Shown: piece by piece, positions 18,971-32,556 of the stretch
Position numbering within the stretch: position 1 is the stretch's first letter
Layout of the letters: every line of letters begins with the position of its first letter
Sequence record: NC_047979.1
Origin: Escherichia phage Gostya9
Strand: one strand, 5' to 3'
Length of the DNA: 64,000 bases
Position numbers and translations under genes: made by a program
The notes under the pieces: generated by a model
Told to the model about the DNA's origin: nothing
The model's input: only the letters and a program-made list of their open reading frames with translations
Database searches by the model: none

Positions 18971-19570
18971 TTACTCTTCGTTGTGTTCCTCGGATTGAGG
19001 TAACTGAGCTTTATTACATTGCTCAGATCGATATTTTGCCAAGATTTCAATACGCTTATGGATTTCCTCGCTATCTAGATAGATGTTTTTGTTGTCTTTT
19101 ACCATCTCGTCGATTTCATCTATTGAGAAGAACGGATAGTAGACATCTAGCATCATATCTTCTACGAACTTGTTATAAGATTCATAGGCTTTCTTGATTT
19201 CTTGACCTTTCTCACAGAACCCGCCAGAGAACGTGTGTCCCATTAGTGTAGCATGTGGATGTACTACCCATCCATGACAAGATAAGAAAATTGTGCAGTA
19301 AGCAGAAGCACTAGGACCAATTAGGTGTCCTATAACTGTTCCACGGCAATTAGCAATTAAGTTAGATAACTGTGCAGCGGTATCAACATAGCCACCAGGG
19401 CCGTTAATCATCAGATTAATTTCGTCGTCCTCATTTGCCTGCATAAGTACCATTGATAAATCACGGTATTCATCCGGCGGACCTAGTTCTTCATCAAAGA
19501 AAAAGGTATACTCGTTAGATTGGCGAATGGAGTGAAACAGGTTAGTCTTTTCTTCTTTTTTATTAGTCAT
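18971..19570 (-). CDS. ClpP-like serine protease
   Basis: 199 aa; INGPGG, GPSAS and VVHPH segments parallel ClpP INSPGG / catalytic Ser / His regions. Confidence 0.55.
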   Translation of the reverse strand: MTNKKEEKTNLFHSIRQSNEYTFFFDEELGPPDEYRDLSMVLMQANEDDEINLMINGPGGYVDTAAQLSNLIANCRGTVIGHLIGPSASAYCTIFLSCHGWVVHPHATLMGHTFSGGFCEKGQEIKKAYESYNKFVEDMMLDVYYPFFSIDEIDEMVKDNKNIYLDSEEIHKRIEILAKYRSEQCNKAQLPQSEEHNEE

Positions 19571-27843: not shown

Positions 27844-27907
27844 TGGTCAGTGCGGCAGGACTCGAACCTGCGACCCGAATCATCCAGGGATCCCACGCTA
27901 CGCACTG
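27844..27907 (-). tRNA. truncated tRNA-like element (64 nt)
   Basis: perfect 7-bp acceptor CAGTGCG/CGCACTG, CCA and canonical T-arm GCAGG-TTCGAGT-CCTGC, but only 29 nt between them. Confidence 0.3.
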
Positions 27908-28288: not shown

Positions 28289-28362
28289 TGGCGCGACCGA
28301 TGGGATTTGAACCCACATTCCCCGTGACAGGGGAGTACCATTACCAAGCCAGCCCCTGTCGC
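28289..28362 (-). tRNA. tRNA-Asp (GUC)
   Basis: anticodon loop CTGTCAC flanked by CTCCC/GGGGA stem; T-arm GGGTTCAAATCCC; CCA encoded. Confidence 0.55.
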
Positions 28363-28371
28363 ATAATTCAT

Positions 28372-28557
28372 TTACTCATATTTGAGTTTTTCAATAGCTG
28401 CATTAAGTTCTTTTAGAGCTTCACGACGTTCTACCTGACCTTGAAGTTCTTCAAGAAGTTCCGCTTTCAGAGTCTCAATAATTTTACCACGAACCTTGAT
28501 ATTATTAATCAGATTATCACGATCAGCTTCTAGTCGAGCAATTGCATGAGTTGTCAT
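28372..28557 (-). CDS. small coiled-coil protein
   Basis: 61-aa ORF. Confidence 0.4.
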   Translation of the reverse strand: MTTHAIARLEADRDNLINNIKVRGKIIETLKAELLEELQGQVERREALKELNAAIEKLKYE

Positions 28558-28584
28558 ATCTATTTCCTCAGTTATTAATGAAAA

Positions 28585-28658
28585 TGGTATCTGTGGCTGA
28601 ATTTGATGTCAGCAATGATAGCTGGTTGGCTACCGGTTTACTTAACTCTACACAGAAT
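28585..28658 (-). tRNA. tRNA, anticodon unresolved
   Basis: CCA + acceptor + T-arm GCTGA..TCAGC; candidate anticodon loop TATCATT. Confidence 0.4.
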
Positions 28659-28659
28659 T

Positions 28660-28740
28660 TGGCGGGCCGTGTAGGATTCGAACCACCAACCCCGAAGGGC
28701 ACGGATTTACAGACCGCTGCAATAGCCATTCTGCCAACGA
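28660..28740 (-). tRNA. tRNA-Tyr (GUA)-like, type II; acceptor closure not confirmed
   Basis: anticodon loop CTGTAAA, variable arm CCC-TTCG-GGG, T-loop TTCGAAT and CCA; no complementary 5' acceptor strand found. Confidence 0.4.
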
Positions 28741-28939
28741 TGTACATTTAAAAGTATTCAAATACTTGTTTAAACACTTTTAAATATGTTTCCAACTTAG
28801 ATAACTATTATATCTAGTTTTAAGGCACTGAGCAAGTCAGATTTTGAAGAATTTGCTCAGTGCTATATTAGTTAGTCGAACTTAGGAGTAACAATTAAAG
28901 AGAATGGGAGTTCGAAAACTTCATCAATTTATACAACTA

Positions 28940-28969
28940 TTATACCAGAAATTTAAAGCAAAAGGCAAG
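28940..28969 (-). promoter_or_regulatory. sigma70-type promoter (weaker -35 TTGCCT)
   Basis: TTGCCT-18-TATAAT on minus strand, upstream of a tRNA pair. Confidence 0.5.
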
Positions 28970-31899: not shown

Positions 31900-32408
31900 A
31901 TTCCTGTGTCGATATTTTTAAGAACTCTCGTAAAAACTCTTAAAAATACAGACGATACCGGGAGAGTCATAAGTCTCACTCATTAAGTATTTCAAGACAA
32001 AATACAGTAACGTCTATTATTTTCCAGTTTAAGTCAAGGTGACTTAGTGGTTATGCCCTGCGGTATACTGGGGACTCGGTTAGGTTAGGGTCATGACTTC
32101 CTACCTTTTTGCTGCTACTCAACAGGAGTTATCGCGAATTACCTGTGCTATTGTGCACCATTAGTGGCATCTCTCATGCCAGCATTTCCCACTTTGTGGA
32201 TAGTTTGAAAAACTACTCCGATATGGAGGGAGAACTTCACTATCCTAGAATACCTTCTAAAGTTCTTCTTTAGCCTGGACATAGTTAAATCGTAATAAAA
32301 CTATTCAGCAGACTGGTTGGTTAGCCTGGAACCAACTACCGCGTGGTTTAGGCAGTGCGCAACTAACCTCGGAAGCTTTTACGTTAAAAGCACCAGTTAT
32401 CCAGTTCT

Positions 32409-32480
32409 TACCGATCGTAGGATTCGAACCTACATCTTCCACCAGTTACGGCTTGATAATACCGTTTATACTAGATCGGC
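32409..32480 (-). tRNA. tRNA, anticodon unresolved
   Basis: acceptor GCCGATC/GATCGGT, T-arm GTAGG-TTCGAAT-CCTAC; CCA not encoded. Confidence 0.45.
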
Positions 32481-32556
32481 AGTGTTACTACATAAGTGAT
32501 TTCCACACCCCACTATTTATAACTTAGAGAAGAATTACTCTCTAATTTATGAATAT

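Follow-up and report, generated by a model that had tools for sequence, protein, structure and literature searches.

Does a stretch of phage DNA that has the anticodon, the long variable arm and the terminal CCA of a tyrosine tRNA, but an acceptor stem that does not close, encode a working tRNA, an RNA of some other kind, or what is left of a gene? The question is raised by an element in the window studied here (the whole stretch of DNA analysed, 64,000 nucleotides of Escherichia phage Gostya9, NC_047979.1). The original prediction placed a tRNA-Tyr-like gene at 28660-28740, described its 5′ acceptor strand as unpaired, and left open a pseudogene or a non-canonical structure. We conclude, with a probability of about 0.88, that the element is a chimeric Tyr/Asn tRNA pseudogene that arose by a deletion between two tRNA genes, and the folding models suggest that it is almost certainly a dead tRNA remnant.

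Structure of the element

The predicted element is real but three bases longer than proposed, since its 5′ end lies at 28743. It is read from the minus strand, and we number it from its first base, so that position i corresponds to window coordinate 28744-i. The CTGTAAA loop, the CCC-TTCG-GGG arm, the TTCGAAT T-loop and the terminal CCA had all been noted before, and each was confirmed on this strand. From 28743 to 28660 the minus-strand letters are ACATCGT TG GCAG AATGGCTA TTGC A GCGGT CTGTAAA in the first half and TCCGT G CCCTTCGGGG TT GGTGG TTCGAAT CCTAC ACGGCCC G CCA in the second. The parts are placed as follows:

28660..28743, minus strand: proposed Tyr/Asn hybrid tRNA pseudogene, 84 nt, with a 5′ part from tRNA-Tyr(GUA) and a 3′ part from tRNA-Asn (three-way alignment with Shivani)
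28685..28743, minus strand: Tyr-only part, positions 1-59, equal to the tRNA-Tyr of Kenya-K36, Kenya-K38 and SelmaRatti except for G1A
28680..28684, minus strand: crossover microhomology GGTTC, positions 60-64, common to both parents inside GGTTC(A/G)AATCC
28660..28679, minus strand: Asn-only part, positions 65-84, equal to the 3′ end of the Shivani-type tRNA-Asn, with the identity running on downstream
28712..28706, minus strand: anticodon loop CTGTAAA (sequence)
28699..28690, minus strand: variable arm CCC-TTCG-GGG (sequence)
28682..28676, minus strand: T-loop TTCGAAT (sequence)
28670..28664, minus strand: 3′ acceptor strand ACGGCCC (sequence)
28663, minus strand: discriminator G (sequence)
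28662..28660, minus strand: CCA of the hybrid (sequence)

Several traits of a class II tRNA are thus present, namely a 7-nt anticodon loop with U33, the anticodon GUA and a purine after it (A37), and a long variable arm. The Tyr-only part holds the 5′ acceptor strand, the D arm, the GUA anticodon arm, the long variable arm and the first T-stem bases. The Asn-only part holds the remainder of the T-loop, the 3′ T-stem strand CCTAC, the acceptor strand ACGGCCC, the discriminator G and the CCA.

A protein-coding reading of the locus was discarded. The open reading frames found here (59 and 37 amino acids on the minus strand, 69 amino acids on the plus strand) are read-throughs of tRNA-derived sequence and are unannotated in DT57C.

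Parent genes and the crossover point

The hybrid was compared with five tRNA-Tyr and four tRNA-Asn genes. Positions 1-64 agree with the tRNA-Tyr of Kenya-K36, Kenya-K38 and SelmaRatti at 63 of 64 bases, the sole change being G1A, and positions 60-84 agree with the 3′ end of the Shivani-type tRNA-Asn at all 25. In a three-way alignment the window tracks the Shivani tRNA-Tyr and its upstream region as far as GGTGGTTC, and from GGTTCGAATCCTACACGGCCCGCCA onward it tracks the Shivani tRNA-Asn and then RNA3. Around the switch the Tyr gene reads GGTGGTTCAAATCC, the Asn gene GTAGGTTCGAATCC and the hybrid GGTGGTTCGAATCC. The last base diagnostic of tRNA-Tyr is T59 (28685) and the first base diagnostic of tRNA-Asn is G65 (28679), which puts the crossover in the shared GGTTC (28684..28680). 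This pentamer opens the T-arm motif GGTTC(A/G)AATCC, at which the Tyr and Asn genes match in 10 of 11 positions. For relatives that have the tRNA-Asn alone, the alignment ends at 28684 (query position 385). The foreign part is the 3′ end, taken from tRNA-Asn; the 5′ acceptor strand is still that of the original tRNA-Tyr gene.

The DNA that is missing can be read off the relatives. In Salmonella phage Shivani the minus-strand order between the T5.073 and T5.068 homologs is the T5.072 ORF, the promoter region, tRNA-Tyr, two small ORFs, tRNA-Cys, tRNA-Asn and RNA3, and variants of this order are found in Kenya-K36, Kenya-K38 and SelmaRatti. The two parent genes have the same orientation in Shivani and in Kenya-K36, with tRNA-Asn downstream. 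Measured between the GGTTC copies, the stretch missing from the window amounts to 828 bp when Shivani is the reference and to 672 bp when Kenya-K36 is; on both sides of it the sequences are collinear. The lost DNA comprises the last 20 nt of tRNA-Tyr, one or two ORFs, tRNA-Cys and the first 58 nt of tRNA-Asn. We found no genome with the exact parental combination, i.e., a Kenya-K36-like Tyr side together with a Shivani-type Asn 3′ end.

The original prediction had proposed an alignment to the tRNA-Tyr of T5 as a check; it turned out to be uninformative because T5 carries a different tRNA-Tyr allele. More generally, T5-like phages have two very different alleles each of tRNA-Tyr, tRNA-Asn and tRNA-Asp at the same loci (compare, in our numbering of records, L003 3949-4036 with L002 2692-2775, and L006 1490-1564 with L003 2187-2263). 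The two tRNA-Asp alleles have an identical 19-nt anticodon arm (TACTCCCCTGTCACGGGAG) and are diverged in the remainder.

Stem pairing, detection and folding

The claim that the 5′ acceptor strand does not pair holds for pairs 1-3 and is slightly overstated for the rest of the stem. Between ACATCGT and ACGGCCC the first three positions fail (A1.C, C2.C, A3.C), but four of the seven pairs form (positions 4-7: T-G, C-G, G-C, T-A), and they survive because TCGT happens, by coincidence, to occupy positions 4-7 in both parents. A crossover within the T-loop also breaks the T stem, a defect beyond those described originally: GGTGG/CCTAC retains three of five pairs, and the central two (pairs 2-3) are G.A and T.T. 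The loss of acceptor pairs 1-3 and of T-stem pairs 2-3 is thus explained by the mismatch of a Tyr half with an Asn half. The discriminator of the hybrid is the G of tRNA-Asn, whereas intact phage tRNA-Tyr has A; A73 is an identity element for bacterial TyrRS.

When ARAGORN was run on the whole window it made no call at the hybrid site; the 12 tRNAs that it did call all lie at 25.3-32.5 kb on the minus strand. With the Rfam tRNA model (RF00005) the hybrid scored 25.1 bits against a gathering score of 29, in a local match to model positions 5-66. The Rfam alignment omits the outer acceptor pairs and marks pairing as failing at two positions of the T stem and at one of the anticodon stem. By comparison, the intact genes are all called by ARAGORN and score 52.8 bits (Kenya-K36 tRNA-Tyr), 50.2 bits (Shivani tRNA-Tyr) and 58.4 bits (Shivani tRNA-Asn).

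The predicted folds differ in the same way. For intact tRNA-Tyr the cloverleaf lies at -25.2 kcal/mol against a minimum free energy (MFE) of -29.3 kcal/mol, with pair probabilities of 0.97-1.0 for acceptor pairs 1-6, 0.59 for pair 7 and 0.88-0.96 for the T stem. For the hybrid the best possible cloverleaf reaches -10.6 kcal/mol against an MFE of -25.2 kcal/mol, i.e., it is approximately 15 kcal/mol worse, and the pair probabilities are 0 in the acceptor stem and at most 0.07 in the T stem. In the MFE structure of the hybrid, the foreign 3′ end is taken up by pairing with the G-rich variable arm and with the 5′ strand of the T stem. Relative to shuffled sequences the MFE of the hybrid is no better (z = +0.26), as against z = -1.72 for intact tRNA-Tyr and z = -3.12 for intact tRNA-Asn. 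In acceptor stem, T stem, score and detection, and discriminator, the hybrid departs from a canonical or functional tRNA-Tyr.

Other ways of rescuing a complete tRNA were considered and rejected. The finding named in advance as speaking against the original prediction, a canonical cloverleaf with a shifted boundary, did not emerge: neither ARAGORN over the whole window nor Rfam at a permissive threshold gave a full tRNA. A split or distant acceptor partner was dismissed because the minus strand between 28300 and 29200 has no match to GGGCCGT or ACGATGT, the partners of the two acceptor strands, even with one mismatch allowed; the sole other GGGCCGT in the window is at 19398 on the plus strand. 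Nor is the likeness to a tRNA due to chance, as 63 of 64 bases are those of a genuine phage tRNA-Tyr. The pseudogene reading offered originally is supported by the missing ARAGORN call, the sub-threshold local Rfam match and the lack of a nearby acceptor partner.

Distribution among T5-like phages

Over 801 bp around the site the window is 99.1% identical to Escherichia phage DT57C and 99.0% identical to DT571/2, both of them Tequintavirus (T5-like). The 84 nt of the hybrid are identical in the window, DT57C and DT571/2, and are without annotation in DT57C. Differences from both phages at nearby positions, together with a 12-nt indel in tRNA-Pro, indicate that the window is a third, separate sequence. 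When a 201-bp query across the junction was used, 354 phage records matched, but the junction was spanned only in DT57C and DT571/2 (four records); the remaining records match on one side of it alone, Asn/RNA3 or Tyr. In IMG/VR an exact scan for the junction returned DT571/2 only, and a metagenome scan for the junction gave no match. The Shivani-type tRNA-Asn, in contrast, is widespread: used as a query itself, it is covered to at least 80% by 236 records. A wide distribution of this gene combined with a rare junction suggests that the intact order is ancestral and that the hybrid is specific to one lineage.

In the hybrid-bearing genomes the Tyr part has only the single change G1A, so that sequence decay is unusable as a sign of relaxed selection. 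The deletion event may be recent.

Origin of the hybrid

We propose that the ancestor carried, in minus-strand order, the tRNA-Tyr promoter, tRNA-Tyr, one or two small ORFs, tRNA-Cys, tRNA-Asn and RNA3, and that a deletion of 672-828 bp fused the Tyr and Asn genes inside their common T-arm GGTTC. Replication slippage, single-strand annealing or unequal crossing-over at the GGTTC direct repeat would be likely routes; the microhomology is just 5 nt, and the sequence would be compatible with more than one route rather than fixing it. The product would then consist of the acceptor 5′ strand, D arm, anticodon arm, variable arm and 5′ T-stem strand of tRNA-Tyr, joined to the 3′ T-stem strand, 3′ acceptor strand, discriminator G and CCA of tRNA-Asn. 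Such an RNA is predicted to misfold. Because it would have no coaxial acceptor/T-arm stack and carries G73, it should be a substrate neither for RNase P nor for TyrRS, and we would expect neither RNase P processing nor charging, nor any use in translation. Judged by the structural models the hybrid is probably non-functional, and the phage is in effect without tRNA-Tyr, tRNA-Cys and tRNA-Asn.

A homing endonuclease as the trigger of the deletion is speculation, and we set it aside: no HNH gene is annotated in the corresponding region of DT57C. HNH endonuclease genes are present in the tRNA cluster of T5.

Could the hybrid nevertheless work as a non-canonical tRNA-Tyr, either because a 4-bp acceptor stem suffices or because the mismatches in its first three pairs are corrected once it has been transcribed? 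Its anticodon loop (U33, GUA, A37) is intact, as are its T-loop, its long variable arm and its encoded CCA, a promoter is retained upstream, and the acceptor mismatches are at exactly pairs 1-3, the positions at which 5′ tRNA editing mends mismatches in some mitochondria. To our knowledge, however, no 3′-5′ polymerase has been described in E. coli or in T5-like phages. Two central pairs of the T stem are broken as well, the cloverleaf is far above the MFE with acceptor pair probabilities of 0, Rfam gives a sub-threshold score and ARAGORN no call, the discriminator is G where bacterial TyrRS identity uses A73, and the survival of pairs 4-7 needs no explanation beyond the TCGT that both parents happen to have. 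Moreover, a T5-like tRNA-Tyr lost its activity in vivo when its stem was mutated (Azam et al., 2024; PMC11555353). A functional tRNA-Tyr is thus extremely unlikely. That the hybrid is an artefact of assembly or sequencing, with two tRNA genes collapsed at their common T-loop, is hardly credible: the junction motif is indeed repeated in many tRNA genes of the cluster, but a shared stretch of 5-11 nt is far too short to fool an assembler, the same 84 nt are found in DT57C, DT571/2 and the window, which are separate sequences, and the flanks are collinear with those of relatives.

The hybrid might instead be a stable tRNA-like RNA that acts outside translation, as a decoy for nucleases that attack tRNA-Tyr or as a signal for processing the RNA3/T5.068 transcript. 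T5-like phages are annotated with stable tRNA-like RNAs (RNA2, RNA3 and RNAX), the anticodon arm of the hybrid is intact, and the promoter that has been kept is reported to be strong for tRNA-Tyr. RNA2, RNA3 and RNAX are, however, conserved across T5-like phages, and the hybrid is not one of this set because it is confined to one lineage; with the junction restricted to the DT57C lineage, conservation lends a function no backing. The predicted fold, too, is no stabler than that of shuffled sequence, and we consider this explanation very improbable. For the decoy mechanism there is the further difficulty that rescue from retron-Eco7 needed a translationally competent tRNA-Tyr, with anticodon mutants and stem mutants both failing (PMC11555353), which argues against a simple decoy. 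An abundant hybrid RNA serving as decoy or sponge for tRNA-Tyr-targeting nucleases (e.g., PtuAB of retron-Eco7), or as some other tRNA-like regulator, is highly improbable. A milder idea is that GGTTCRAATCC might be a recurrent recombination point at which tRNA halves are shuffled among T5-like phages.

Promoter and downstream neighbours

The neighbouring features of the hybrid are:

28779..28853, minus strand: equivalent of T5 promoter P14a (the tRNA-Tyr promoter), collinear with the T5 annotation, upstream of the hybrid
28585..28657, minus strand: RNA3, a tRNA-like RNA that follows tRNA-Asn in T5-like phages and here follows the hybrid (annotated as "RNA3", a putative stable RNA, in DT57C and as "putative tRNA-like RNA" in T5)
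28557..28372, minus strand: T5.068 homolog

The P14a equivalent has a -10 hexamer TATAAT at 28812..28807 and TTGCTC 17 nt upstream of the -10 (hexamers read from the sequence). A simple consensus promoter scan did not list it, and it was placed by homology to the T5 annotation. Since the P14a region is conserved, the hybrid is probably transcribed from the retained tRNA-Tyr promoter and would share its transcript with RNA3, tRNA-Asp and the T5.068 homolog.

At 28825-28863 there is a perfect inverted repeat of 11 bp (GCACTGAGCAA ... TTGCTCAGTGC) with a 17-nt loop, which overlaps the -35 region of the tRNA-Tyr promoter and is conserved from T5 to the window. It is unlike a classical terminator in that no T-run follows it.

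RNA3 itself is a conserved neighbour of tRNA-Asn, which it directly follows in hundreds of T5-like phages. The 77-nt stretch that holds it (28583-28659) is predicted to fold as a three-way junction with z = -3.2. The fold has an acceptor-like stem, a sequence ending in ...CACAGAUACCA and no D arm, and RNA3 has no match in Rfam.

Comparison with known systems

McClain and Foss reportedly described, in Cell in 1984, hybrid tRNA genes generated by deletions in the tRNA cluster of T4. There, a deletion in the cluster is reported to have fused the front of one tRNA gene with the 3′ part of a second by way of shared sequence, and at the level of sequence the present hybrid looks the same: the parents have the same orientation, the crossover is in common sequence and the intervening DNA is lost. 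There are also differences. The T4 hybrids reportedly arose as laboratory mutants, whereas the hybrid here belongs to a lineage of natural T5-like isolates; its parents are tRNA-Tyr and tRNA-Asn, whose halves are structurally incompatible. The hybrid is thus a fresh, unannotated example of a kind of event already reported for T4 in 1984. A literature search on hybrid or chimeric tRNA recombination returned nothing on T5-like phages.

The hybrid also differs from the intact tRNA-Tyr and Shivani-type tRNA-Asn alleles, since it is neither of them in complete form and combines the Asn discriminator G with the Tyr anticodon. There is also a second chimera. The tRNA-Asn of Salmonella phages Kenya-K36, K38, K42 and K45 is of the Shivani type on its 5′ side and changes at GGTTCGAATCC to the T5 type for its 3′ part; two of the four copies are placed as follows:

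L006 1833-1915, minus strand: chimeric tRNA-Asn of Kenya-K36
L005 1443-1525: chimeric tRNA-Asn of Kenya-K38

This gene has two mismatches in the acceptor stem and one in the T stem, an Rfam score of 37.3 vs 58.4 bits, and an MFE structure that is not a cloverleaf; its exact sequence is found in those four records only. It resembles the Tyr/Asn hybrid in having its switch point in the T-loop and mismatches in both the acceptor and T stems. It differs in that two alleles of one gene were exchanged with no deletion, and in that ARAGORN still calls it. Together the two sequences hint that the T-loop motif is a recurring junction.

Larger losses from the region are tolerated. T5-like phages that have spontaneously lost approximately 8 kb from their tRNA-rich region are viable (T5n and SP15m; Azam et al., 2024; PMC11555353). 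As in the present case, it is this part of the genome that has shed tRNA genes, tRNA-Tyr among them, and viability is kept (PMC11555353). In T5n and SP15m, however, the whole region of approximately 8 kb is gone, whereas the deletion described here removes 0.7-0.8 kb, has both ends in tRNA genes and leaves a chimeric remnant.

Consequences for the phage

The tRNA-Tyr of T5-like phages protects against retron-Eco7, and stem mutations abolish this ability (PMC11555353). From the failure of stem mutants and the need for a competent tRNA, we predict that the phage is without tRNA-Tyr function and sensitive to retron-Eco7. More broadly, DT57C-like phages are expected to have no working tRNA-Tyr, tRNA-Cys or tRNA-Asn, with sensitivity to retron-Eco7 as the predicted outcome. 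For annotation, the element would best be labelled a Tyr/Asn hybrid tRNA pseudogene, and neither a tRNA-Tyr nor a novel RNA. It would also offer a clean natural case in which the conserved T-loop serves as microhomology for a deletion and for the formation of a chimera in a phage tRNA cluster.

Other deletions in the tRNA region

The interval that gave rise to the hybrid has been shortened elsewhere as well. In NR01 (L009 1000-1100) the DNA from the interior of T5.072 up to a point shortly before tRNA-Asn is missing, and an 8-nt direct repeat, ATTGAAAG, marks the junction. SP3 (L010 900-960) lacks the DNA from the interior of T5.072 to the interior of RNA3, again with an 8-nt direct repeat, GCTGATAT, at the junction. 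These two deletions are independent of that of the hybrid and fall in the same T5.072-to-RNA3 interval. The window itself has one more:

~28919..28925, minus strand: second, separate deletion junction, with most of the T5.072 ORF gone; the Shivani alignment breaks here and Kenya-K36 is collinear

This T5.072 deletion is common to the window, DT57C and Kenya-K36. The tRNA set of the lineage is undergoing erosion via short-repeat deletions, which agrees with the viability of the approximately 8 kb deletions in T5 and SP15 (PMC11555353).

In SP3 the deletion fuses the T5.072 ORF to the tail of RNA3. In the window a promoter-like site upstream of T5.072 has been kept (28968..28939; TTGCCT, an 18-nt spacer and TATAAT), and it now faces the inverted repeat and the tRNA-Tyr promoter.

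Two further tRNA genes of the window are altered. The tRNA-Pro at 27844-27907 (minus strand) is 64 nt long; relative to DT57C it lacks 12 nt between GTAGCG repeats and with them its D arm. This deletion is specific to the window, and ARAGORN calls the DT57C copy and not the window copy. The tRNA-Asp(GUC) at 28289-28362 (minus strand) is identical in DT57C and is damaged compared with T5, Shivani and SP3. A change of C6 to A creates an A.G mismatch in the acceptor stem, and a 3-nt deletion (GGGAGAGAATG to GGGGAATG) affects the 3′ side of the anticodon stem and the variable loop. The gene is not called by ARAGORN and scores 27.9 bits with Rfam, below the threshold of 29.

At 32408-32481 (minus strand) there is another tRNA-like sequence, which scores 39 bits with Rfam and is called "Ser(act)" by ARAGORN. 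Its acceptor and T arms are good, its anticodon stem is poor and it has no CCA; it falls within the region that is annotated in DT57C as "RNAX, stable RNA with unknown functions".
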